Origin: Leptonemataceae bacterium
GTDB taxonomy: Bacteria; Spirochaetota; Leptospiria; Leptospirales; Leptonemataceae
Assembly (NCBI GenBank): GCA_965227295.1
Contig: OZ245742.1
Coordinates: forward strand, 256,001 to 320,000
Length of the DNA stretch: 64,000 nucleotides
Direction: 5' to 3'
The translations under genes and the position numbers were made by a program. This document shows positions 7,041 through 32,217 of this stretch, in pieces (position 1 is the stretch's first letter; each line of letters begins with the position of its first letter). The notes under the pieces are model-generated. The model was not told the DNA's origin. It searched no databases and saw nothing but the letters and a program-made list of their open reading frames with translations.

Positions 7041-7406
7041 AGAGCGGGGCTCCGGGGTGCGAATTCGCTTCCTGGATCTTTACGACGAAGACGCCGTTCG
7101 GTGCGCCGTACCACATTCCCCGGCATGACCTCCGTTCGTCAGTTGGAACCAGCCGTCCCCATACAAGGCTTAATGTACACTCACCGCCACTTACACCACG
7201 ATCCGGGGCGTCCGCGAACAACCGATACATTTCTGGTAGTTCAAGAGCTGCAGTTCGCTACCGCCGTCGTGAGAAACATGGAGTAAGTTGCAGTATAGTG
7301 AAGGGGATTTTTTGGCTACAGCTTTGCGGGAGTTGTGGATTTTCGTTTTGTTAAGAATGCTGCGTTCGACCCGGGACGCTGCTTATGCGACTCAGCTACC
7401 GCAACG
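7041..7406 (+). repeat. Dispersed long structured repeat, copy with order leader-B-A
   Basis: Homologous to 41758..42621 (leader gagcggg..gtgcg.attcgcttc.tgga; gacgaagacgccgt; ggtagttcaagagc; gcgactcagctacc). Confidence 0.85.
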
Positions 7407-21851: not shown

Positions 21852-22534
21852 CGACGAACGCATCTGAGTTTGAAAAACCTGGCTCCGCCGTCGAGCCCGA
21901 CCTGGCGTTGGCAGGCATCATTCGCGGCTGTCTCTCGCGACGCTTCATCCTGCGATCCGAGCGCCAGAAACTCTTTCTCTCCATTGTCGAACAACGGGGC
22001 GACCTCAGCGATTACTTCAGCCGGATGGGTGCCCGGCTCGTCGTCGACGAAGGCCTGGGCATCGCCTATCTCCAGTCCCTGCCGGAACACGACGAGGACA
22101 TCGACTACCGTCTGGGCCGAACGAAACGCCTGAGCGCGCTCGAAACTCTGTTGCTCTTCGTGCTGCGCTGGTATCGTAACAACTACTTCTTCGGCGACGG
22201 CGAGGCGGACATGGAGATGCCCGTCATCGACGTCGAACGCATCCGCGAAATGCTCGAAGAGTACAAGCCGGCGAAAGCCGAGCGCGCCTTCGAACAAAAA
22301 CTGAAACGTGCCATCGATAATTTCAGCGATCTAAAAATCTTACTGAAGACCGATCATCCCGAACGCTTCGCCGTCTCCCCCGTCACCGACGTCCTGCTGC
22401 CCGCCGACGGCATTGAACGCTCGCTGAACCGGGCCCGTGATTACTTCGCGTCCACGACGCAAGACGAAGCAGATGCACCGTCTTCGGACGAAGACAATGC
22501 GAATCCCGACGCGAACGCGGATTTGGACTCTTAA
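21848..22534 (+). CDS. jetB: Wadjet JetB (DUF4194-like)
   Basis: LSDYFSRMGARLVVDEGLGIAYL...LSALETLLLFVLR pattern typical of DUF4194; GTGA overlap. Confidence 0.8.
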   Translation: MTTNASEFEKPGSAVEPDLALAGIIRGCLSRRFILRSERQKLFLSIVEQRGDLSDYFSRMGARLVVDEGLGIAYLQSLPEHDEDIDYRLGRTKRLSALETLLLFVLRWYRNNYFFGDGEADMEMPVIDVERIREMLEEYKPAKAERAFEQKLKRAIDNFSDLKILLKTDHPERFAVSPVTDVLLPADGIERSLNRARDYFASTTQDEADAPSSDEDNANPDANADLDS

Positions 22535-22547
22535 CAGGAACCCCGGT

Positions 22548-25500
22548 TTGAACGCGAACAACAACGGAAAGACCGAGAAGAACGGGCATCACGGAAATCG
22601 CCCGGTCAACATAAGCCTCGGTTACACGTTGCAGCGCGTCGAAACTCTCGACTGGGGCAACTTACGCGGCTGGCAGCCCATTGAACTGAGTCTCGCCGAC
22701 GGCGGCTCGCGCCTGTCGTTGATCGCGGGCATCAACGGCTCCGGTAAGTCCACCATCATCGACGGCATCATGACGGTGCTGCTCCCGTTCAAGCAGCTCC
22801 TGCAACTCGGCGTGACCCACGACTTCGAAGAAGGCCGGTCCGGTTCTCGGAACGTCGATGACTACCTGCTCGGCAAACACGCGGCGACGGGCGGTGATGC
22901 CGTCGAAGACGATCAGGTCTACAGCCGCGACACCGGCGTTTCGTGCATTCTCCTGGTCTTTCGGCACAACGAAAATCCCGAACGCTGGCTGAGCCTGGCG
23001 CGCGTGTGGTGGTACGCCGGTCGCAAGATCCGCGAAGATTCAGCGAATATCATCGCCCGGGAAAATCTGACGATCGGTGCGAGCGACGCGCGCACGCCGG
23101 AAGACGAGGGCGGCGGCCTCTTTCAAACGCCGCGACTCAGTCTGTGCGACGATGCCGGTCACATGTTCGCGAGTCTCGCCGCCATGAAGCGCGGCCTGCC
23201 GCAAAAGAGCGACCGCATTCAGGTCTTCGACCGCGTGAACCAGTACTTCGAAACGCTGCGCAAGTATCTCGGCGGCGTCAGCAAAGAAGATCTGCGCATG
23301 CTCAATCGCGCCTTCTACATGAAGTCCATCGGCCACATCGACCGCTTCATTCGCGAGCACATGCTCACCGAGATGGAGCACGAATCGATTCACTCTTTGA
23401 TTCAACATGTCAAGCAGGCCGCGGAGATTTCCCGGGACATCGCCAGAAGCGAAGAGCGCGTCGTAGCACTCAAGGTGATCACCGGCAACCTGCGCACGTT
23501 TCGCGAACACCAGATTCGCATCGAAGCATGCCGGCTGGAAATTCGACTCCTGCGAATCTACGAAAAATGGGCGGAACGCCGGGACATCGAACTCGAACTG
23601 ACGAAACTGGGGCACGGCATCGAGACGGCGGAGGCGCAGCTCCCCGGACTTCGGCAACGCGTGGATGATGCCGAACGGGAGTCCAACAAACTCCAGCAGG
23701 AGCTGAACGCCAGCGAAGGCATCCTGCGCCTGGAACGCCTCAAGGACGATCGCAAGAATCTCGAGAAAGACATGAATCTCATGCGCCGGGAGCGCGAGAC
23801 CGTGGAAGAACGCTGCGTTCGTCTCGGACTGGAGCGGCCGAAATCCTTCGAGGGGCTGCCCGCGTTCCGGGAGGCCGTGAAAGAAGTTCGTAGCGGCCTG
23901 GTAAACGAGGCCGCGGAATTTGCGGCACATCAAAAACAGGTGCACATCCGCGAAGGCGAGCTACGCACGGAGACGGAACGCGTACGCGGTGAGATCGAGT
24001 TTCTCTCGAAGAACCGCACCGTCATCGATGAGCAGACCTACCGGATAAAAACGCGCTGCTTCGAGGAACTCGGCTTAAGTAATACGGATTTGATGTTTGT
24101 GGGCGAGCTCATTCGCGTGAAAGCGGACGCCCATCAGTACCGCCGCGCGGTGGAATCGGTGCTCGCCCCCATCTCTCGCAACCTGCTCTGCGCTCCGCAT
24201 TGCCTGGACGATGTCACCGAATGGTTGAATCGCACGCAGCTCCGCCGCACCGTCGTAATGAAGCGCATCCGATCGGAAGAACTCGAGGCCCGGCCGGCGG
24301 AGAAGGCCGCAAAGGATTCCATCCTGAATCGCATCGAGCTGCGACCGCGCGAAGACCATCCGTTCTACGACTATCTCTGGAACTGGTTGCGCGCGGAGTT
24401 TTATCATCGCGTCGTCGGCGTCGAAGAACTCCGCAGCAGCGTCGACCGCGCGGTTACCGTCGAAGGCCTGGTAAAATCGGACCGCCGGACGCAACGAAAG
24501 TACAAAGAAAAGCTGGAGTACAGTTTAGGCTGGGACAGCCGGGAACGCCAGGCAGAACTCGTCCGGAATTTGAACGCGCTCCAACGAGAAGACGAGCAGA
24601 TTCGCGCGGAAAACGCCGCCCTTGAAGAACGTCGGCGGGACCTGTCCGCCCGGGAACGCGATGCGGACGATTTGCTCAAAGAAGCCCACGAATACCTCGG
24701 TCTCCCGGAGCACGAAGAACGCTATGTCCGGCTGGAACAGGAAATCCTCGTTCTGGAACGAGACGACACGGATTTGAACGCCCTGCGGGAACTTGCCGAA
24801 GAAAGCAAACGCCGCTACGGCATGCGACAACGCGAATTGGTCCAGCTCGAACAGAACCTCGAACACGATCAGCGGAACCGGGAGAAGCTGACAAACGAAC
24901 GCGCGGATCTGGAATCGATCATCAATGATCGCCTGGGAGTTCCCCCGGAAGGAGATCGGCGGCCGCTCCGCGAGGCGGTCCCGGACTGGGAGGAGCGTCT
25001 TAAGTCTATTCAGCAAATTCTTAGTGTAAAGAATCTACAGGTTCACGAATACGAACGCGAGATTGAATCGGAGATCAACAGCCGCACGCTGAGTCGCAAC
25101 AATACGCACGTCCGGGATCGCTTGAAAAACTACCAGGAGGATCATCACGATCCGAATTTGCCGGCAGACTTTCATCCCGAAACCGTCACCGTGGACGGCA
25201 TCGATCGTTTCCTGGAAGCGTGGAACGAAGCCCTGGAACGCCTGGAATCGACCGGACTGCCGGCCGCTCGCGAAAAATGGACGCGCTTTTACAATGACAC
25301 GCTCATCGACGCCATTAAGGCCGCCGTCAACGAAATCCGCACGCAGCAACGCGAAGTCGAAACGAACATCGCCAGCATCAACTCGGTGCTGCGCGGGGTG
25401 GACTTCGAACGTCTGCCGGAGGGCAATCGTTATCTTAAGATCGAGGCGCAACGCAGCAACGATACCCGCGTCCGTCGTTTTCTGAAAGACGTCAAAGAAG

Positions 25501-26132
25501 TCGAGGGTGTTCTCGCCGGAGATATTCGCGGTCTCGGAGCGTCCGAAAACGCAAAACAAACGATGGCGGTGCTGGAACCGTTCGTCGAAAGCCTGACGGA
25601 AGATCCGAATTATCAGGCCTACGTCGTCGACGTGCGCAATCATCGCACGTTCCAGGTGCACTCGCTGCGCCGCAATCCCGACGGCGAAGACGTAGTCGTC
25701 GAACGCTTTGCGGGCGCGCGGACGGATTCCAAGTCGTCGGCGCAGACCGCGCAGCTGGCGTACACTCTGCTCGCGTCTTCGCTGGCGTATCGTTTTCATT
25801 TTCATACGCCGGCGCGCGGGCAGGACAGCTTGCGGCTGATCATCCTCGACGAGTTCACGAGCAAGTTCGATAACGAGAAACCCCACGACGTCATTCGCCT
25901 GCTGACCGACATGGGCTTCCAGGCCCTGCTGGTAAGTCCGCTGGACAAGGCCGATCTCCTGGCCGAGCACATCAATCGGCTGGTCTTCGTGTTCAAGGTT
26001 TCGGCCGAGGAATCCAAGGCGTATTCGCATCCGATTCGTTCACGCAAAGACTACGATCGCCTCATGGAAAATGCCAGGCAAATCATGCGTGCCGGGCAAC
26101 CGGCTGGAACCGAGCGAAATGCGGGAGCGTAA
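22548..26132 (+). CDS. jetC: Wadjet JetC SMC-like ATPase
   Basis: DWGN, Walker A GINGSGKST, long coiled coils, LAYTLLASSLAY, Walker B IILDE; TTG start inferred. Confidence 0.88.
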   Translation: MNANNNGKTEKNGHHGNRPVNISLGYTLQRVETLDWGNLRGWQPIELSLADGGSRLSLIAGINGSGKSTIIDGIMTVLLPFKQLLQLGVTHDFEEGRSGSRNVDDYLLGKHAATGGDAVEDDQVYSRDTGVSCILLVFRHNENPERWLSLARVWWYAGRKIREDSANIIARENLTIGASDARTPEDEGGGLFQTPRLSLCDDAGHMFASLAAMKRGLPQKSDRIQVFDRVNQYFETLRKYLGGVSKEDLRMLNRAFYMKSIGHIDRFIREHMLTEMEHESIHSLIQHVKQAAEISRDIARSEERVVALKVITGNLRTFREHQIRIEACRLEIRLLRIYEKWAERRDIELELTKLGHGIETAEAQLPGLRQRVDDAERESNKLQQELNASEGILRLERLKDDRKNLEKDMNLMRRERETVEERCVRLGLERPKSFEGLPAFREAVKEVRSGLVNEAAEFAAHQKQVHIREGELRTETERVRGEIEFLSKNRTVIDEQTYRIKTRCFEELGLSNTDLMFVGELIRVKADAHQYRRAVESVLAPISRNLLCAPHCLDDVTEWLNRTQLRRTVVMKRIRSEELEARPAEKAAKDSILNRIELRPREDHPFYDYLWNWLRAEFYHRVVGVEELRSSVDRAVTVEGLVKSDRRTQRKYKEKLEYSLGWDSRERQAELVRNLNALQREDEQIRAENAALEERRRDLSARERDADDLLKEAHEYLGLPEHEERYVRLEQEILVLERDDTDLNALRELAEESKRRYGMRQRELVQLEQNLEHDQRNREKLTNERADLESIINDRLGVPPEGDRRPLREAVPDWEERLKSIQQILSVKNLQVHEYEREIESEINSRTLSRNNTHVRDRLKNYQEDHHDPNLPADFHPETVTVDGIDRFLEAWNEALERLESTGLPAAREKWTRFYNDTLIDAIKAAVNEIRTQQREVETNIASINSVLRGVDFERLPEGNRYLKIEAQRSNDTRVRRFLKDVKEVEGVLAGDIRGLGASENAKQTMAVLEPFVESLTEDPNYQAYVVDVRNHRTFQVHSLRRNPDGEDVVVERFAGARTDSKSSAQTAQLAYTLLASSLAYRFHFHTPARGQDSLRLIILDEFTSKFDNEKPHDVIRLLTDMGFQALLVSPLDKADLLAEHINRLVFVFKVSAEESKAYSHPIRSRKDYDRLMENARQIMRAGQPAGTERNAGA

Positions 26133-27293
26133 ATGATAGATGAGATCGAGAAACTTTTCGATCTTGAATCTTATCTCGATCGAGCTGAAAAAGACTTCTT
26201 GTTAAACGGCCGGGAAGAATTTCGGTTCTCCTTGCGTTTTACGCGGCGCGTGAAAGCCGGTCACGATCGCTTCGAAAAAGAAATTCGCGCCTTTGATTTT
26301 CTGCGCTTAGACTACGGTCGCACCGTTCGCAGCGGTCATGTGCGCGTCGGACGTATCAGCGAGATTGCCTTCGACATCGAAGACCTGCTGCGCCTGCGGC
26401 CGGAGTTACGTGTTGTGCGGCGGGCGTTTCTACAGGCATTCGATACGTCGTCGGCTTCCGCGGTGCGCACCTACGTGCAAAACAATTACGCGTTATGCCG
26501 GCGCAAGTTCGAAGTACTGCCGGACTGCGTTGATGTGCTCGAGTACCTGTTCGCGCATCGCGAATCCGTTCGCGGCCGGTACTGCCGGCAAATCCCGCAC
26601 GGAAAATCTACCAAGCTGATTGGACGGGAAGCGCTACTCCTCGGACTCTACGAAGCCGTACGACGCGAGCGCAGCGAAAATTCCGACGGCAATCAGCAGG
26701 CACTGAAAATTCGGTGGAGCGATTTCGTTGCCGACTTTGATCTGAGAACGAAGCCGGCGGCCTTTCTCTTCTGGGCATCCCGGCTTCGCATCGACGGACA
26801 TGCCATCGAAAATTTCGACGCGCTTCTGAGTGACGAAAATATTGATCGATTAACCTTTCCGGAAGTAAAGTTTGCGCTGATCGTAGAAAACGAAGAGACG
26901 TTCTACAGCGTTCGAGACGCCCTGCGAGATTTTTCGGCTCCGGCAGTGTTGATTGCCGGCGGCGGCGCGGCCGTCGGCGGCGCCGGTTTTCTCGCCGGGG
27001 TGCTGCAAGCCCGCCCGCATTATTACTGGGGCGACATGGACGCCTCCGGCTACGAAATCTTTCACGGCGCACGAAGCGTGTTTCCCGCATTGGAACCGCT
27101 GCTGATGAATCATGAAAGCCTGCGTCGCTACGAAAGTGTCACGCAGCAAGTCGCTCCAGTGAACCCCAGAACGGCGCGGGTTCCGCTCCTGGATTCCGAG
27201 TACCGCCGGGTGTGCCGGGACGGGTTGCGCATCGAGCAAGAGCACATTGCCATCGAAGACCTTCTTCAAATCCTCGAAGAATCGCTGCGCTGA
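26133..27293 (+). CDS. jetD: Wadjet JetD Toprim nuclease
   Basis: LIVENEETF, YYWGDMDASGYEI, RIEQEHI (DUF2220-type motifs). Confidence 0.88.
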   Translation: MIDEIEKLFDLESYLDRAEKDFLLNGREEFRFSLRFTRRVKAGHDRFEKEIRAFDFLRLDYGRTVRSGHVRVGRISEIAFDIEDLLRLRPELRVVRRAFLQAFDTSSASAVRTYVQNNYALCRRKFEVLPDCVDVLEYLFAHRESVRGRYCRQIPHGKSTKLIGREALLLGLYEAVRRERSENSDGNQQALKIRWSDFVADFDLRTKPAAFLFWASRLRIDGHAIENFDALLSDENIDRLTFPEVKFALIVENEETFYSVRDALRDFSAPAVLIAGGGAAVGGAGFLAGVLQARPHYYWGDMDASGYEIFHGARSVFPALEPLLMNHESLRRYESVTQQVAPVNPRTARVPLLDSEYRRVCRDGLRIEQEHIAIEDLLQILEESLR

Positions 27294-27322: not shown

Positions 27323-27916
27323 TCAATCCACCTCGAACATCTCCGCCCCCTCCGGCCCCACGTTCCACGCCGTCGCACGCTCCTCTTCTAACAGTAATCG
27401 CGCAGAAGTTACGACGCACGCCGCCGTCGTCGTAATGACCGGCAGAAAACCGTCGCCCTCGCACGTCGCCTGGCCGGGCACGTCCTCGGAGTCCACGACG
27501 AACTCACTGTCCGGCCGCACCGCGGCGAAGCTGCCGTCCGCGGCGAGACCGGCGTGAATGCAGGCGATGCCGTGTGCACGCACGAACTCCTGCACGAGCA
27601 ACCGCGATTCCGCGTTATCGAAACATTCGATGACCAGGTCCCGGCCGCCGAGCAACGTCTCCACATTCTCCGGCGCAAGCCGCACGGAATAATCCTGCAA
27701 CTTGCGGCCGAAGAAATTCTGGAACTGCATCTTGAGCGCGACGGCCTTGTTCTTGCCGACCATGGGCTTCACGAACCACTGCGACACCAGGTTCTTCGTC
27801 TCCACACGATCGAAGTCCACGACGGAAAGATCCGCGGCGAGCCCGCGCGCCGCGTAAACGACGTGCGAACCCAGGGCCCCGCCCCCGCAGACAATGATGT
27901 TCTTCGCAGCGCTCAT
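27323..27916 (-). CDS. Stand-alone E1/ThiF-family adenylyltransferase
   Basis: GGGALGS, DFDRVETKNL..Q, GKNKA, ECFDNAESR, candidate catalytic Cys in ATCEG. Confidence 0.9.
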   Translation of the reverse strand: MSAAKNIIVCGGGALGSHVVYAARGLAADLSVVDFDRVETKNLVSQWFVKPMVGKNKAVALKMQFQNFFGRKLQDYSVRLAPENVETLLGGRDLVIECFDNAESRLLVQEFVRAHGIACIHAGLAADGSFAAVRPDSEFVVDSEDVPGQATCEGDGFLPVITTTAACVVTSARLLLEEERATAWNVGPEGAEMFEVD

Positions 27917-27919
27917 TGC

Positions 27920-28174
27920 TTAACCTGCGCCGAACGGAACTTTAGGCCGAATCACGTAACGCGTTTCCCGACCGCGGCCCGCGCGAAAGCGGTCGATCAC
28001 GAAATGATCGAACGCACCCGACGGCACATTCCCGGCGCGGATGCCCGGAACTTCACCGGCACGCACGGCTTCTTCGGCAATGCGGCGGATCGTTTCATCG
28101 TGCACGTTGTCTTCCAGTTCCACCGGGTAGTTGCCCGACTGGCCGTTGTATGTAATGTTCAGAATCACTTTCAT
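27920..28174 (-). CDS. Putative ubiquitin-like (beta-grasp) protein
   Basis: 84 aa, beta-beta-alpha-beta pattern, ends PKVPFGAG; lies between JAB and E1; GAGGT RBS. Confidence 0.65.
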   Translation of the reverse strand: MKVILNITYNGQSGNYPVELEDNVHDETIRRIAEEAVRAGEVPGIRAGNVPSGAFDHFVIDRFRAGRGRETRYVIRPKVPFGAG

Positions 28175-28196: not shown

Positions 28197-28550
28197 TCAC
28201 GAGCGCCCGAACGAAAGTTCGCGCAGCGTCTCAAGCCACCACGGCGCATCTTTGCGCACACGATTGCGACCCCGGCAACCCCACCGGCTCAAATAGCCGC
28301 TTCGCGTAACCACAGACCAATGAAACTTAAGCCCCGTGGCCGCCTCCACCGCTTCCATCGTCGTGCGGTCCTCCTCCGAAAACCGCAGCATCTCACCGGG
28401 ATGCGTATGCACAATCTCGGCAATGTCCGCGCGGTGTTCCCAGATCGTTTCCCAGCGCTCCCGGGCGTCCGGAATCGCCGCTTCGCTGCCGTAGTAGATC
28501 CTTAAGATCGTACCGGCTTTTGTTAAAATAAAACACACCTCGCGCATCAC
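28197..28550 (-). CDS. JAB/JAMM (MPN+) metallopeptidase
   Basis: N-terminal Glu plus exact HxH-x7-S-x2-D motif (HTHPGEMLRFSEED). Confidence 0.88.
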   Translation of the reverse strand: MMREVCFILTKAGTILRIYYGSEAAIPDARERWETIWEHRADIAEIVHTHPGEMLRFSEEDRTTMEAVEAATGLKFHWSVVTRSGYLSRWGCRGRNRVRKDAPWWLETLRELSFGRS

Positions 28551-28556
28551 ACAAAC

Positions 28557-29471
28557 TCAGCCGCGGCGATACACATGCAGTTGATGCGTGGCGATGGCCT
28601 CGCGCACCGCCGACGGCAGACTCGACAGATTCAACTCCTGGTCCGCCCCGTCGAGACAAATCCCCGCGTCGAGAATCTGCAACGTCGCGCGATCCACGAC
28701 GCACTCGTACTTCTCGCCGCCGAAGCGGTACTTCACGATCGCCTGGTCGCCGCCCTGGCTGCGCCAGTCCACCAGCTCCGCGCCGGTGTGCGCGAGGGCC
28801 GCAATGACACGATCATCGAACGTCTCGTCGCGGCGACGACGATCGCGCACGAGTTCTTCCAGCTCACGTTCCGCGACGGCGCGACGCTCGGCCTCGCGAC
28901 GCAGGTACGCTTCTTCTTCGGCACGCAACCGGGCGAGCTCCGCCGCCTGGTGTTGCAGTTCGCGATCGAAGACCGCGGCCGCGTACGCGCTCGCGAGCGA
29001 AGGCACCACGCCTTTTACGTGATCGATGCCGCGGCCGTCGCGATGTACGCTGCCTTCTTCAAAGGCGTCGCGCACCTGACCTTCGGCTTCGCTCTCGAAA
29101 CCGATGCCGGTAAAAATGTAGTGCCCGTCGTACCACACCCGCGCGGTGATCGGGGCGAAACGTTCCGGCGGTTCGTTCGCATCGATGCCGAAGATGTTTT
29201 TCTGAAACGTATCCCCGACGAAGCGGCCGTTATAAAAGTGACCGCTGACTTCTTTGAGATCCGCATGATCTTCCAGCGCCGTTCGCGCCGTGTCTTCGTC
29301 GAGGGCCTCCGCGACTTCCACGAAGCGGCCCTGTTCGCGGAAACGATACCAGCCCGGCGCCGGTCGTTCTTTCAGGCGATACGCGCGCTCCGCGTCACAC
29401 ACCCGGTCGCCGCCGAAGTACGGCAACACCAGTTCGCGATCGCCGCCCTGTAGAAATGCGCGATAGTCCAT
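28557..29471 (-). CDS. Hypothetical protein (globular N-terminus, coiled coil, C-terminal domain with ILDAGICL)
   Basis: 304 aa from MDYRAFL; 6 bp upstream of the JAB gene; the longer ORF extension overlaps ncRNAs and is rejected. Confidence 0.8.
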   Translation of the reverse strand: MDYRAFLQGGDRELVLPYFGGDRVCDAERAYRLKERPAPGWYRFREQGRFVEVAEALDEDTARTALEDHADLKEVSGHFYNGRFVGDTFQKNIFGIDANEPPERFAPITARVWYDGHYIFTGIGFESEAEGQVRDAFEEGSVHRDGRGIDHVKGVVPSLASAYAAAVFDRELQHQAAELARLRAEEEAYLRREAERRAVAERELEELVRDRRRRDETFDDRVIAALAHTGAELVDWRSQGGDQAIVKYRFGGEKYECVVDRATLQILDAGICLDGADQELNLSSLPSAVREAIATHQLHVYRRG

Positions 29472-29635
29472 AAACGATCTCTGTAACAGAGGCACGCGAG
29501 TGCGAAACAGTTTTTTCCTTCGCAGGAAAATTCCGGATTCGAACCGGAACGGTGGACAACCGTTTGCTCCCATAGCAAATCTCAAATGCTTGTTACTGTA
29601 ATTCCGATTGCATGCCTCTATTGCAGAGATCGTTT
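29472..29635 (-). ncRNA. Y-RNA-like structured RNA 1 with tRNA-like multibranch domain
   Basis: Ends pair over about 25 bp (AAACGATCTCTG.AATAGAGGCATGC / GCGTGCCTCTGTT.CAGAGATCGTTT, G-U pairs favour minus strand); four inner hairpins including T-arm TTCCGG-TTCGAAT-CCGGAA. Confidence 0.75.
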
Positions 29636-29642
29636 CGGTGGA

Positions 29643-29802
29643 GAACAGCGCCGGGGATGGGCACGCGAGTGCGATGCAGTTTCGTTTGGTTACGTGACCG
29701 GAATCGAACCGGCTCCTCAAGATTAGAAGTCTTGTGCTCTACCTGTGAGCTACACATGCTTGTAACTGCGCTCCGATTGCATGCCCATTCCCGGGGCTGT
29801 TC
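29643..29802 (-). ncRNA. Y-RNA-like structured RNA 2 containing a tRNA-Arg(UCU) mimic (29687..29759)
   Basis: About 22-bp closing helix; inner D arm GCTC-ACAGGTA-GAGC, anticodon arm CAAGA-CTTCTAA-TCTTG, T arm GCCGG-TTCGATT-CCGGT, 5-bp acceptor stem, ACCA. Confidence 0.8.
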
Positions 29803-30081
29803 GTCGTTTTCCCTTCTCATCTATTTTGCGCGCGTTCTTTGCAAGATCGGAGCGGTTTTTTCTGCGCCGTCCTTGAAAAACAAGAACGCCCACCCGCCTG
29901 CCGCGCCCGGTTCATCGGCCCGTTTTCGCACCTCATCAACGGTTCGCCGAAACCTCAACCAGCCTCCTATCTCGCAACTCGCGGACACACCGTCCGCATT
30001 CCTCGCAACTGATCATTCCTCCCGTCCGCCCTCGCGGACATTCCTTTTAACATGTTAAAATAACAGGACCGCAGGCGGCCC

Positions 30082-30125
30082 AAAAACGAAAAAACCCTCC
30101 GATGCGCGTGCATTCCGGAGGGTTT
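30082..30125 (-). terminator. Probable intrinsic terminator
   Basis: AAACCCTCCG/CGGAGGGTTT stem followed on the minus strand by a T-rich tract. Confidence 0.6.
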
Positions 30126-30291
30126 CGTGGAATCGAAACGGGTCTTTCGCCGCATCAACTTACACCACAGACCCTCCCGGCATCTTGCCGCAGTCCTCAT
30201 TCGTTTTCCGATGTAAACTTACAGGTCGCATCATCGTGCCTTTCGAGGTTATGAGACGCATGGTTCCGTAAAATTGTTTCAAAAAATTTTT

Positions 30292-30404
30292 ACTCCGAGG
30301 CCCGAGGTACCGAGAAAAAAGAAAAAGGAGGGTGATCATAACCCGCTTGCATGCAGACTACAATCACCCTCCCCAAAAAAACTCGGACCCTCGGTCCTCG
30401 GAGT
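30292..30404. repeat. Inverted pair of ACTCCGAGG(A/C)CCGAG repeats (family 2)
   Basis: actccgaggcccgag...ctcggtcctcggagt. Confidence 0.7.
30315..30372 (-). terminator. Long hairpin plus U-tract downstream of the vWA gene
   Basis: Minus strand GGAGGGTGATTGTAGTCTGC-ATGCAA-GCGGGTTATGATCACCCTCC forms 20 bp with 5 G-U pairs, then TTTTTCTTTTTT. Confidence 0.6.
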
Positions 30405-30417
30405 CCAACTTCTTAAC

Positions 30418-32217
30418 TCAGTACGGCTTCGTCAGCAACTGAGTCCGCAGCACTTCCTCGACGAGAGACAGCTTGCCGCTTTTCAGCGGTTGCGCCTTCA
30501 GGATCGCCTGAAGACTGCGCTGCACCTGGTAGACGTCCGAAAACTGATCGACGTCCACTTCCGTGTACGGCAACTTCATCTCCACGGCCGCCTTGCGCAC
30601 CGTTTCGCCGCGCGACCACGCCACGTTGACAATGTGCGCGAACGCCGAGACATCGAAGCCGCAATCACGAAACGCCTTCGCGAACTCCGCGCCGGACTCA
30701 CCGGCCTCGTCACCGACGGCGAAGACGATCAGGTCCGCGCCGTCCGGAATCGTAACACCGGACTGCTTCAGCGCACGCACGCCGGAGCCGTAGACCGTGC
30801 CGCCGCCCGCTTCGATGCGCGAGAGCATGTGCTCCACGCCGCGCCGCGACGGATGACGCAAACGCAACACGGTGCCCACGGTATCAAAGGCGACGACGTG
30901 CAGTTTCTCCGGCTCGAAGCCCTGCAAAATTCCCGCGAGCGCCTCTTTCGATTTCTCGATGGCGCCGGACATCGAAGCCGACGTGTCGATCAAGAACACG
31001 ATGTGGATGTCCGCGTCTTCCGTCGCTGCGTCCACAGCCTTCTTGACGGCGCCGTCCGCCGCATCTTCCAACGCTGCGACGTTCTCGCGGTTACGCACGT
31101 TCTTTGCGATGTTGCGCGCCCGCTGATCGTCCAGATTCTTAAGTGCATCCTGCCAGCGCTTACGAATCTCCTCGTGCTTCAACAACCCCAGGTCCTCCAG
31201 CGTCGGCGTGAGAATCGCGAGATCCCGATCCGACACACCGCCGGCTTCCAGTACAGCGACGAAGATCGCCGGACTCAGGCCGATCTCCGGCGGCAGCATG
31301 CCCGTGACCTGCTTGTAACCGAGCTGTTTGTCCACGATCAGCGCACAGATTTCCGCTTCGCTCTTGTTTTCGAAAGAAAGGCTCTCGCGATTCAACTCGC
31401 CCAGGCCCACGCTACGGTGACCCTGTTCGTGCTGCTTCTGCGGCCAGTTCAAAATCTCGAAAAAGCGCTGCGACTCCGGCTTGTATCCGACCATGCGCGC
31501 CAGGTTCTTCACCGTCTTCGCGTAACCGGCCTTCTTCAGGCCCTCGAGCAACTGAATGTTCATCTCGCGGAAACGCAGCCAGTCTTCCACGGCCTTGTAA
31601 TAACGGCCCGTAAACGGCTTGCGTTTCTGCACATTGCCGAAGCCCAGTTCCTTGTTGATCGCGACAACGCCAGGCAACGACAATACGTCGCCGATACGCG
31701 CAATCATCTTCGGCGAAAGCATCTTCGCCGAGCCGCGCTCATAGGTCTTCAGCATGGCCTCGCCGACTTCTCGAAAGTCGTCGTCGTGAAACAGCAGTTC
31801 GCGTTTGCCGTTGTTCTCGTCGAACACCGGTTCGCCGCTGCGGTTCTGCACGAGCATGAACGCCGCGCACACGACCTTAATATCCCGCCACGTGGTCTTA
31901 GTCGCCACGTAGGACGCGAGCCGGGCCGCGAGTTCCTCGTTCACCTTGTAAATGTCCGCGATCGTGCCGTAGACCTGCACGATGGCGTGTTCGTTCGGCC
32001 CCGCCGGCTGATAGCGCAGGCCGCGCGGAACCTGGCCGCTTTCGTTGTATCGCTGAAGCGCTTCGCGGTCGTACTTCCAGCGCCCGCTCCCGTCCAGAAA
32101 GCCGGGGCGGTTGTGCCAGAGGTGATCCGGAAAGTTCAGGAACAACTCGAGCAACCGTTCCGCGGGCCCGAGTTCTTCTACCAGGGCCTCGATCTGTTCG
32201 TCGGTTCGTTGACTCAT
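30418..32217 (-). CDS. Helical N-terminal region plus C-terminal vWA domain protein (possible divergent Ro60/TROVE)
   Basis: 599 aa; MIDAS FLIDTSASMS, GGGT, VGDE; GAGGA RBS; vWA domain certain, TROVE identity inferred. Confidence 0.8.
   Translation of the reverse strand: MSQRTDEQIEALVEELGPAERLLELFLNFPDHLWHNRPGFLDGSGRWKYDREALQRYNESGQVPRGLRYQPAGPNEHAIVQVYGTIADIYKVNEELAARLASYVATKTTWRDIKVVCAAFMLVQNRSGEPVFDENNGKRELLFHDDDFREVGEAMLKTYERGSAKMLSPKMIARIGDVLSLPGVVAINKELGFGNVQKRKPFTGRYYKAVEDWLRFREMNIQLLEGLKKAGYAKTVKNLARMVGYKPESQRFFEILNWPQKQHEQGHRSVGLGELNRESLSFENKSEAEICALIVDKQLGYKQVTGMLPPEIGLSPAIFVAVLEAGGVSDRDLAILTPTLEDLGLLKHEEIRKRWQDALKNLDDQRARNIAKNVRNRENVAALEDAADGAVKKAVDAATEDADIHIVFLIDTSASMSGAIEKSKEALAGILQGFEPEKLHVVAFDTVGTVLRLRHPSRRGVEHMLSRIEAGGGTVYGSGVRALKQSGVTIPDGADLIVFAVGDEAGESGAEFAKAFRDCGFDVSAFAHIVNVAWSRGETVRKAAVEMKLPYTEVDVDQFSDVYQVQRSLQAILKAQPLKSGKLSLVEEVLRTQLLTKPY

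Follow-up and report, generated by a model that had tools for sequence, protein, structure and literature searches.

The locus described here lies in a stretch of 64,000 nucleotides from a Leptonemataceae bacterium (GenBank assembly GCA_965227295.1, contig OZ245742.1, positions 256,001 to 320,000 of the forward strand), hereafter the window, on which all coordinates are counted unless stated otherwise. Two RNA genes, RNA 1 and RNA 2, are found there between a gene for a von Willebrand factor A (vWA) protein and the gene for a protein of 304 residues, p304, which is followed by the genes of a candidate ubiquitin-like protein (Ubl) conjugation set, all on the minus strand. A sequence-only reading of the window had proposed that RNA 1 is a tRNA mimic nested in a larger RNA and not an ordinary tRNA gene, and the short acceptor stems, the covarying outer helices and the mixture of anticodons in the family to which it belongs bear this out, whereas its interpretation as a whole is supported in part; the orientation of the module had to be corrected, as both ARAGORN and Rfam place it on the minus strand. 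The features of the locus are the following:

29659..29786, minus strand: RNA 1, the whole Y-like unit (handle plus non-permuted tRNA-like module), about 128 nt, supported by the match to covariance model R1 and by covariation of its helices P1 and P2
29687..29759, minus strand: tRNA-like module of RNA 1, comprising an acceptor of 5 bp and the D, anticodon and T arms, with AACCA after them (ARAGORN, Rfam)
29490..29617, minus strand: RNA 2, the sister RNA, with the same handle (full-length R1 match, fold z-score, shared motifs)
30418..32217, minus strand: vWA protein of 599 residues, Ro60-like by predicted fold, with an intact metal-ion-dependent adhesion site (MIDAS, DxSxS..T..D)
30326..30397, minus strand: terminator-like hairpins just 3' of the vWA gene (6 sites against 1.5 +/- 1.4 in shuffled sequence)
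28557..29471, minus strand: p304, 304 residues, family unassigned
28197..28550, minus strand: JAB/JAMM metallopeptidase with motif HTHPGEMLRFSEED, start codon uncertain
27920..28174, minus strand: Ubl candidate of 84 residues (MKVILNITY...PFGAG), from its translation and C-terminal motif
27323..27916, minus strand: ThiF/E1-like adenylyltransferase of 197 residues (Pfam ThiF, E-value 1.1e-20; PADLOC E1-E2 models, down to 2.4e-12)

On the window, ARAGORN calls a tRNA-Arg(tct) at 29687..29758 (minus strand), and the Rfam tRNA model RF00005 matches 29691..29759 on the same strand with 53.0 bits and an E-value of 1.5e-8 for the 64-kb window, in an alignment in which the acceptor has a 2-nt deletion and non-standard pairs. 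Read on the minus strand, the module opens with an acceptor stem of 5 bp, one of them U-G (AUGUG/CACGU), followed by U8 and A9, a D arm (stem GCUC/GAGC, loop ACAGGUA), an anticodon arm (stem CAAGA/UCUUG, loop CUUCUAA at 29729-29723, with UCU at 29727-29725), a variable loop of 4 nt and a T arm (stem GCCGG/CCGGU, loop UUCGAUU). The nucleotides that support the tertiary structure of tRNAs are found at U8, A14, G18G19, A21, G53, U54U55C56, A58 and C61. The description of the D, anticodon and T arms as canonical and in normal order, with a 5-bp acceptor enclosed by further helices, agrees with ARAGORN, with Rfam and with the sequence itself. The same reading had the acceptor followed by ACCA; the 5-bp stem and the CCA stand, but two bases, AA, and not one discriminator, precede the CCA. 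After it, 11 bases run into helix P2 (GCAGU/ACUGC, 5 bp), which encloses the cloverleaf and is followed by ACAAGC, and the whole is closed by helix P1 (GGGCAUGC/GCGUGCCC, 8 bp, 29786-29779 with 29666-29659). The internal loop of this handle is asymmetric and conserved, with GCAAUCGG on the 5' side and CCACUCGC on the 3' side, the latter present in the window as CGCACUCGC. Scored with the covariance model R1, RNA 1 reaches 101.3 bits over 29653-29792. A complete cloverleaf in normal order, nested in larger helices on the minus strand, is thereby confirmed. RNA 2 carries on the same handle a head made of a D-like hairpin, a hairpin with a 5-nt loop in place of the anticodon arm, a T arm (CCGGUUCGAAUCCGG) and a hairpin with a GCGA tetraloop; its fold z-score is -3.88 and its full-length R1 score 45.4 bits, and the earlier description of this sister RNA, which keeps the T loop, has lost a canonical anticodon loop and has gained a GCGA-tetraloop arm, was accurate.

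Homologous loci were fetched with a 15-sequence alignment of the vWA protein, which gave 80 genomic loci; the RNA counts that follow cover the window and these loci. An exact-motif scan using the handle sequences of the window missed most relatives, and a motif scan detected 28 units with a common handle in the window and in loci L001-L011. In the Verrucomicrobiota-type loci the handle is composed of P1, the 5' loop GCAAUCGG, P2 (GGAAGU/ACUUC) and YACAAGC, with CCACUCGC on the 3' side leading into P1; in the Myxococcota-type loci and in a Planctomycetota metagenome-assembled genome (MAG) it takes a variant form, GCGCGCCCG..UCG..GGGAGCC-UACACGC ... CCACUCGGGCGCGC. Three types of head are mounted on the shared handle: a normal-order tRNA-like module with a 4-6 bp acceptor (class A), a circularly permuted one that runs from T arm through a closed 7-bp acceptor hairpin and D arm to anticodon arm (class B), and a simple hairpin in units of about 93 nt (class C). 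Matches to R1 gave 22 full-length class-A units above 53 bits, with more in phages; a lack of the cloverleaf at homologous loci, which the sequence-only reading had named as a result that would refute it, is thus not observed. From one to six units stand in tandem at each locus.

Comparison of the homologues carries the structural case. In 11 class-A units, 95.3% of the alignment cells are paired and 17 of the 31 pairs have compensatory changes, a level reached in 0 of 500 shuffles, and slid controls were 34-46% paired. By helix, covarying pairs are 6 of 8 in P1, all five in the anticodon stem and 3 of 5 in the T stem. The acceptor, held in a fixed register, is 72.7% paired against 97-100% for every other helix, because its register shifts between units. 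When viral units were included, an alignment of 34 matches fitted to the R1 model (33 full-length units and one ordinary tRNA) had 94.0% of cells paired and covariation in 26 of 31 pairs, with P1 at 7/8, P2 at 5/5 and none of 500 shuffles at that level. Class B units are 91.6% paired, and all seven pairs of their closed acceptor hairpin covary. These data show a family of RNAs in which the handle stays constant while the heads are exchanged.

Within this family, permuted units lie at L003:7880-8030, L005:4907-5205, L006:5885-6037, L010:8043-8191 and L018:5594-5742, and also in L024, L026 and L028; their break point falls in the variable region and the anticodon arm is kept, in which YrlA differs. 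GC-rich hairpin heads of about 93 nt, a YrlB-like minimal form, are found at L003:8169-8261, L005:4784-4877, L006:4999-5092 and L010:7952-8044. In some non-permuted units (L005:5239-5388, L003:8632-8781, L001:9977-10149) an additional hairpin separates the T arm from the 3' linker; the presence of a hairpin on this side of the T arm in the sister RNA of the window as well (GCGA) suggests a further sub-type.

The anticodons of the 22 class-A units are AAG (twice), CAU (four times), GAU (twice), UCG (twice) and, once each, AGA, CAG, UGA, UUU, UCU (the window), AUG, CGC, CUU, CGA and GCG, so that the 20 loops of seven nucleotides hold 14 distinct triplets; the remaining two units have 6-nt loops. 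Arg(UCU), the identity given in the sequence-only reading, is not one that the family conserves. In six of the 22 units a Leu or Ser anticodon (AAG x2, CAG, UGA, AGA, CGA) is combined with a variable loop of 4-5 nt; to our knowledge, such a short variable loop is absent from bacterial Leu and Ser tRNAs. The surroundings of the triplet are better preserved: by hand count, 17 of the 22 units retain U33 and 21 have a purine at position 37. All units have U54. Column entropy peaks at the three anticodon positions, at about 1.6-2 bits, comparable to the flanks outside the RNA. Of the 22 units, 13 have a CCA in their A/C-rich 3' linker, against 8.0 +/- 2.1 in shuffled sequence (p ~0.014, related units not being independent), at distances from the acceptor stem that vary among units. 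The encoded CCA of the sequence-only reading is thus real in the window and mildly enriched in the 3' linker of the family, but it is no fixed feature.

The own genome of 5.94 Mb, on one contig (C1), holds 86 tRNAs according to ARAGORN, almost none with an encoded CCA, and among them, at C1:3633294-3633368, a standard tRNA-Arg(UCU) whose acceptor has 7 bp, with another copy in a tRNA array. Scoring against the Rfam tRNA model gave 53.0 bits for the mimic, 70.7 for the housekeeping tRNA-Arg(UCU) and 69-70 for the neighbours of the latter. A dense array of about 40 tRNAs in two inverted blocks lies at C1:4547528-4559530, 4.26 Mb from the locus; six tRNAs sampled from it scored 34-64 bits, against 69-71 for housekeeping ones. 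Position 20 in the D loop of RNA 1 is U and not A; A20 is a major identity element for ArgRS in E. coli. RNA 1 has the cloverleaf arms and the conserved tertiary nucleotides of a decoding tRNA; it has neither a 7-bp acceptor with one discriminator and a free or addable CCA end, nor an anticodon conserved among orthologues and matched to the type of its body. Judged on these sequence features, RNA 1 is evidently not a decoding tRNA. This has a practical side for annotation, since tRNA finders label such modules as tRNA genes with arbitrary anticodons and inflate the tRNA counts of phages and MAGs.

Pfam recognizes only vWA domains in the 599-residue protein, and a profile of its family searched against the sequences of the PDB likewise matched vWA domains and not Ro60. 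Its AlphaFold2 model (mean predicted local distance difference test, pLDDT, 76; predicted template modelling score, pTM, 0.45) is helical in its N-terminal part and has at the C-terminus a vWA domain that holds the MIDAS. Searched with Foldseek, the model has as top matches full-length Ro60/TROVE structures (9nfa, 9nep, 1yvp, 2i91, 9kop, 2nvo and, from a phage, 9l5y), with E-values of 6.5e-8 to 2e-6 over 550-620 columns and template modelling (TM) scores of 0.35-0.52. On this model the protein is probably Ro60-like in fold. It has at least 990 homologues at E <= 0.001, with identities of about 60% to the Verrucomicrobiota-type and about 50% to the Myxococcota-type proteins, and a search of the own genome for a canonical TROVE gene found none.

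The remaining products of the operon resemble a Ubl-conjugation set, in which an E1-like adenylating enzyme and a JAB/JAMM peptidase motif are both recognized. The motif HTHPGEMLRFSEED of the peptidase fits HxH..S..D, and its Pfam Prok-JAB score of 23.5 bits is just below the cut-off of 25. Most of 60 homologues of the Ubl candidate end in RPK[VT]PFG plus a tail of 0-6 residues, 11 of them exactly at FG, and this C-terminus is the pattern of a putative JAMM-trimmed Ubl precursor; in the ESM Atlas the candidate matches only unnamed Myxococcota clusters (0.83). The E1 is the only one of the Ubl-type genes of the operon matched by PADLOC models, and its best NCBIfam models are of the ThiF/MoeB type, all far under their cut-offs. 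The p304 model (pLDDT 84) is predicted to contain a pair of small beta-barrels, a helix of 70 residues and, at the C-terminus, an alpha/beta domain, the latter with weak E2/RWD-like matches and with Cys272 in the motif D[AS]G[IV]CL, present in 52 of 53 homologues. Searches of p304 against Pfam, PADLOC, NCBIfam and the ESM Atlas gave no match, and Foldseek none at E <= 0.001.

Outside the window, the gene order vWA, p304, JAB, Ubl, E1 was recovered by tblastn in most of the genomic loci (80 in all) and likewise in most of the viral ones (30); the carriers are Verrucomicrobiota, Myxococcota, one Planctomycetota MAG and viral contigs of 130-497 kb. The viral loci were retrieved from IMG/VR with the same protein alignment at 33-44% identity, and many of them are on contigs of that size. 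Full-length units with handle and tRNA-like module, at 55-79 bits, are found in 14 of these 30 loci, two pairs of which are near-identical.

The position of the RNA genes changes from lineage to lineage. They lie between the vWA gene and p304 in the Verrucomicrobiota-type loci (L001-L011), where the "tRNA" that ARAGORN reports right after the vWA gene is variously Ser UGA, Leu AAG, Lys UUU, Met CAU or Ser AGA; just upstream of the vWA gene in nine of the ten other loci displayed (nine of the Myxococcota type and the Planctomycetota MAG); and 0.3-1.6 kb downstream of E1, on the operon strand, in all 14 viral loci with R1 units. They are co-oriented with the adjoining operon throughout the loci examined. 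The adjacency of the RNA family to the operon is thus obligate in bacteria and phages alike, and the fact that it is kept while the position shifts is as expected for a trans-acting partner RNA.

The genomic surroundings of these operons are often rich in tRNA genes. The viral operons, mostly complete, are placed inside tRNA arrays with up to 25 tRNAs per 6-kb flank, and the array tRNAs that flank the operon in the Verrucomicrobiota-type loci are ordinary, with 7-bp acceptors. L002, L003, L007, L008, L009 and L011 have 5-15 ordinary tRNAs in the 6 kb upstream, the viral array loci are L096-L123, and tRNA genes often resume straight after E1.

In the own genome there are just these two RNA units and one operon. 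When R1 was run on the genomes of 40 relatives, only the own genome (101 bits) and the genome G008 (88.5 bits) stood out, in a search dominated by ordinary tRNAs at 50-60 bits that is no test of presence below about 65 bits; the two genomes of the same genus had no R1 unit clearly above ordinary tRNAs. As G008 alone among the 40 relatives has a clear unit, the locus is accessory. L001, on a contig labelled Leptospiraceae, has the unit most similar to that of the window; its anticodon stem is similar, its inserted acceptor has 5 bp and it scores 88.5 bits. An identical score is found in G008, a genome of the same family, and mis-binning or a recent transfer could lie behind this.

Several features of this system recall the Y RNAs of bacteria. 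As far as the published descriptions of YrlA go, that RNA is modular too, with a terminal stem formed by its 5' and 3' ends and, as effector, a tRNA-like module that has both D and T arms; its gene adjoins a Ro60-type gene on the same strand, often together with a smaller sister RNA (YrlB), and it also occurs in phages. In these descriptions the acceptor of YrlA is a closed stem-loop, the anticodon loop is absent and the module is entered through the position of the anticodon stem (Chen et al., 2014, PMC4201824; Wang et al., 2018, bioRxiv 10.1101/312249), whereas the unit of the window has normal order, an open short acceptor and a full anticodon arm. The permuted class of our family (T arm, closed 7-bp acceptor hairpin, D arm) follows the order of YrlA but, unlike it, retains the anticodon arm, the break being in the variable region. 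The protein partners also differ, with E1, Ubl, JAMM and p304 here in place of the RtcB and RtcA of the YrlA systems as described.

The claim that the architecture is unlike YrlA therefore stands, but its normal order is not without precedent, the nearest being Yrn1 of Deinococcus radiodurans. According to the relevant sections of Chen et al. (2014, PMC4201824), the orientation of the T and D arms in Yrn1 is opposite to that in YrlA and a potential anticodon arm has a 5-bp stem and a 6-nt loop. As in our units, T and D arms come in tRNA order relative to the 5' end, and the RNA gene is upstream of rsr on the same strand, much as in our Myxococcota-type loci. In the same account the D arm of Yrn1 is doubtful, dihydrouridine was not found in it, the loop has six nucleotides and a variable arm is lacking, unlike the complete cloverleaf of the window with its 53 bits. 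Yrn1 acts as a tether between Rsr and PNPase (Chen et al., 2014, PMC4201824), a link not seen at the loci studied here.

Other likenesses are more partial. Prokaryotic Ubl operons (E1, E2, JAB and Ubl), both those of the Bil type and those known from the work of Iyer, Burroughs and Aravind, treated in part by Kaur et al. (2020, PMC7159879), share with ours a ThiF-type E1, a JAMM peptidase, a small protein with a conserved C-terminal Gly and a tail, putatively cleavable in ours, and a sporadic, island-like spread that includes phages; unlike them as described in the literature searched, ours comprises a Ro60-like protein and tRNA-like RNAs, and PADLOC matches only its E1. The mimicry of a tRNA inside a larger RNA recalls tmRNA and the tRNA-like structures of viral RNA 3' ends as covered in part by Wang et al. 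(2018, bioRxiv 10.1101/312249), which have a free 3' CCA and are aminoacylated; here P2 and P1 close the acceptor end, and the CCA is internal and inconstant. The part of a review on jumbo phages (PMC7824862) that bears on the subject deals only with canonical ROT/TROVE proteins with a tRNA-like partner as an RNA-repair platform. No description of a Ro60-like/vWA protein with E1, JAB, Ubl and tRNA-like RNAs was found by full-text searching, supplements being outside its scope, and the system is apparently an undescribed variant of the Ro60/Y-RNA theme.

Taken together, it is probable that the tRNA-like module is the effector end of a Y-RNA-like scaffold of about 128 nt, and that it is not released or charged as a tRNA. 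RNA 1 and RNA 2 would be two tandem Y-RNA-like units placed between the gene of the Ro60-like vWA protein and the rest of the operon, with the cloverleaf emerging from the constant handle through a shortened acceptor-like stem of 4-6 bp. The handle would be the binding site of the Ro60-like protein, by analogy with the terminal stem of Y RNAs and Ro60. The L-shaped mimic, with its intact elbow nucleotides and its exposed anticodon loop, would recruit a tRNA-binding partner, for which the OB-like barrels of p304 and the tRNA enzymes of the cell or the phage are candidates, and in this way the RNA would link the Ubl-conjugation enzymes with the Ro60-like ring. Given that huge phages and Verrucomicrobiota have the operon inside tRNA arrays, it is most likely on tRNAs that the complex acts, in surveillance, protection or turnover.

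A number of results weigh against this scaffold. The Ro-binding stem of YrlA carries on its 5' side the motif GNCGAAN0-1G in the description of Chen et al. (2014, PMC4201824), and the corresponding 5' strands of the window, GGGCAUGCAAUCGGAGCGCAGU and GAGGCAUGCAAUCGGAAUUACAGU, are without GNCGAA; in 29300-30400 no Rfam Y-RNA family is found at E <= 10, and RF00005 alone reaches its gathering score. On the protein side, Pfam TROVE (PF05731) has no match in any of 15 members of the family, with a threshold as loose as E <= 10, and hhalign against 17 canonical Ro60 sequences gives an alignment that is colinear but weak (probability 6%, E-value 0.006; 19% against a single Ro60). The cloverleaf-in-handle model of RNA 1 has an energy of -36.6 kcal/mol, against -48.9 kcal/mol for the minimum free energy structure, and RNA 1 has a fold z-score of only -1.54: thermodynamic folding does not yield the cloverleaf, and the case for the structure therefore rests on the comparison of homologues.

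The same comparison bears on whether this is a tRNA gene after all, namely a true tRNA-Arg(UCU) gene of unusual form, or else a degenerating tRNA pseudogene or the remnant of an integration site, whose flanks pair by chance. ARAGORN and Rfam do call it, all arms and tertiary nucleotides are there with a CCA nearby, and its 53 bits fall within the 34-64 of the array tRNAs of its own genome; yet the acceptor has 5 bp with two bases before the CCA, the D loop has U20 and not A20 (a major ArgRS determinant in E. coli), the flanking helices covary across phyla and phages, homologues carry 14 anticodons with class-II ones on class-I bodies, and a normal tRNA-Arg(UCU) is encoded elsewhere in the genome. 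Such a gene is highly improbable, and the comparative sequence data appear close to refuting it. Somewhat less improbable, but still very unlikely, is a cis-acting element with no role as a free RNA, which would be cut by RNase P or RNase Z or would stabilize or terminate the operon transcript. It would suit the location of the units within the operon, on its strand, in the Verrucomicrobiota-type loci, the U-run that follows P1 in many relatives, in the manner of an intrinsic terminator, and the lack of a sigma-70-like promoter in the scan ahead of RNA 1; in addition, the YrlA of Mycobacterium smegmatis, with its 7-bp stem, is cut by RNase P according to Chen et al. (2014, PMC4201824). Against it, the same paper has acceptor stems of 4-6 bp, the length seen here, as poor RNase P substrates (PMC4201824). 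Moreover, the RNA takes a different place in different lineages (between the first two genes, upstream of the first or downstream of the last), loci contain one to six tandem units with three head types, and neither RNase P nor RNase Z has need of the conserved sequences in the internal loop of the handle.

Two further explanations assign the system a more specific task. In the first, the exposed anticodon loop is a decoy or tripwire, a bait for the anticodon nucleases or the tRNA-modifying or tRNA-inactivating enzymes of a competitor, host against phage or the reverse; cleavage or binding of the bait would change the ribonucleoprotein (RNP) and turn its Ubl-conjugation arm on or off, and different units would bait different specificities. 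This would be a specialization of the scaffold model and not its opposite, and we consider it rather unlikely. The sequence-only reading had suggested a decoy or sensor for anticodon nucleases or a modification substrate, with which the variable anticodons and the tRNA-array setting are compatible without demonstrating it. It draws on the triplet being the most variable part of the tRNA-like module while positions 33 and 37 keep the U and purine of tRNAs; on near-identical backbones that differ mainly in the loop (AAG in L005a, CAU in L010a, CAG in L009 and a 6-nt loop in L004 and L006a); on the several anticodons of single loci (UUU/GAU in L008, CAU/UCG in L022, CUU/UCG in L076, CGC/CAU in L096); and on the setting, that is, the tRNA arrays around the operon on viral contigs of 130-497 kb and in Verrucomicrobiota loci, the Wadjet genes that adjoin it in the window and its absence from the two same-genus genomes searched. 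However, a loop under no constraint that drifts neutrally would account for the variability just as well, the operon has no gene for a nuclease, a toxin or any other obvious effector, and permuted and hairpin-only heads sit on the same handle, so that an anticodon loop in its normal context is not required. In the second, the E1 and the Ubl would be a sulfur relay and not a means of conjugating protein, with the Ubl as a thiocarboxylate carrier of the ThiS/MoaD/TtuB type that thiolates the tRNA-like RNAs or the array tRNAs. In Thermus and in the Urm1 pathway, tRNAs are thiolated with the help of sets of Ubl, E1 and JAMM proteins, the E1 matches ThiF/MoeB-type NCBIfam models best (all far below cut-offs), the Ubl candidate ends with a conserved Gly, and U54 is found in all units and U33 in most. 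Against it, Pfam and NCBIfam scans of the operon found no PP-loop ATPase of the TtuA/Ncs6/MnmA type, no rhodanese and no cysteine desulfurase, the variable tails after the Gly and the JAMM peptidase fit a processed Ubl of the conjugation type, and the conserved Cys of p304 is in a domain with weak E2/RWD-like matches; this is the least probable of the explanations weighed here.

If the scaffold and its bait are combined and carried furthest, a new RNP system of huge phages and some bacteria may be envisaged, in which a divergent Ro60-like ring with interchangeable tRNA-shaped baits, in normal order or permuted and with many anticodon loops, would report attack on, or damage to, tRNAs to a Ubl cascade. 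This cascade would be formed by the E1, the OB-plus-E2-like protein, the Ubl and the JAMM peptidase, encoded in the same operon within the tRNA arrays of the element. We regard this as unlikely.

The scaffold reading has a broader interest in that the conservation of Ro60 and Y RNAs reaches from bacteria as far as humans, and what binds the tRNA-like end of bacterial Y RNAs is an open question of the field. The family provides natural variants of the head on one handle (normal-order, permuted and hairpin-only, with many anticodons), and its fixed protein partners are a complete-looking ubiquitin-like set, previously unlinked to Ro60 in bacteria. Its location in huge phages, within their tRNA arrays, suggests that it has a role when phage and host compete over tRNAs, and a cassette of five genes and two RNAs makes such a role testable.

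Concerning the rest of the locus, the spacer between the vWA gene and RNA 1 (29793-30417, minus strand) is non-coding and, at about 530-600 nt, unusually long; it contains no further R1 match, and a scan for sigma-70-like promoters near the RNAs found none. Among the sequencing runs listed for 29300-30100 there were DNA-type contig runs and none of RNA. On the other side of the operon, Wadjet jetC (1231 residues, PADLOC JetC 1.3e-141) and jetD (386 residues, 2.5e-30), at 22437-27293 on the plus strand, converge on E1, which gives the locus a defence-island-like setting. A further ARAGORN call in the window, a 94-nt tRNA-Arg(gcg) at 7290-7383 on the plus strand, is below the gathering score of the Rfam tRNA model and is probably false.

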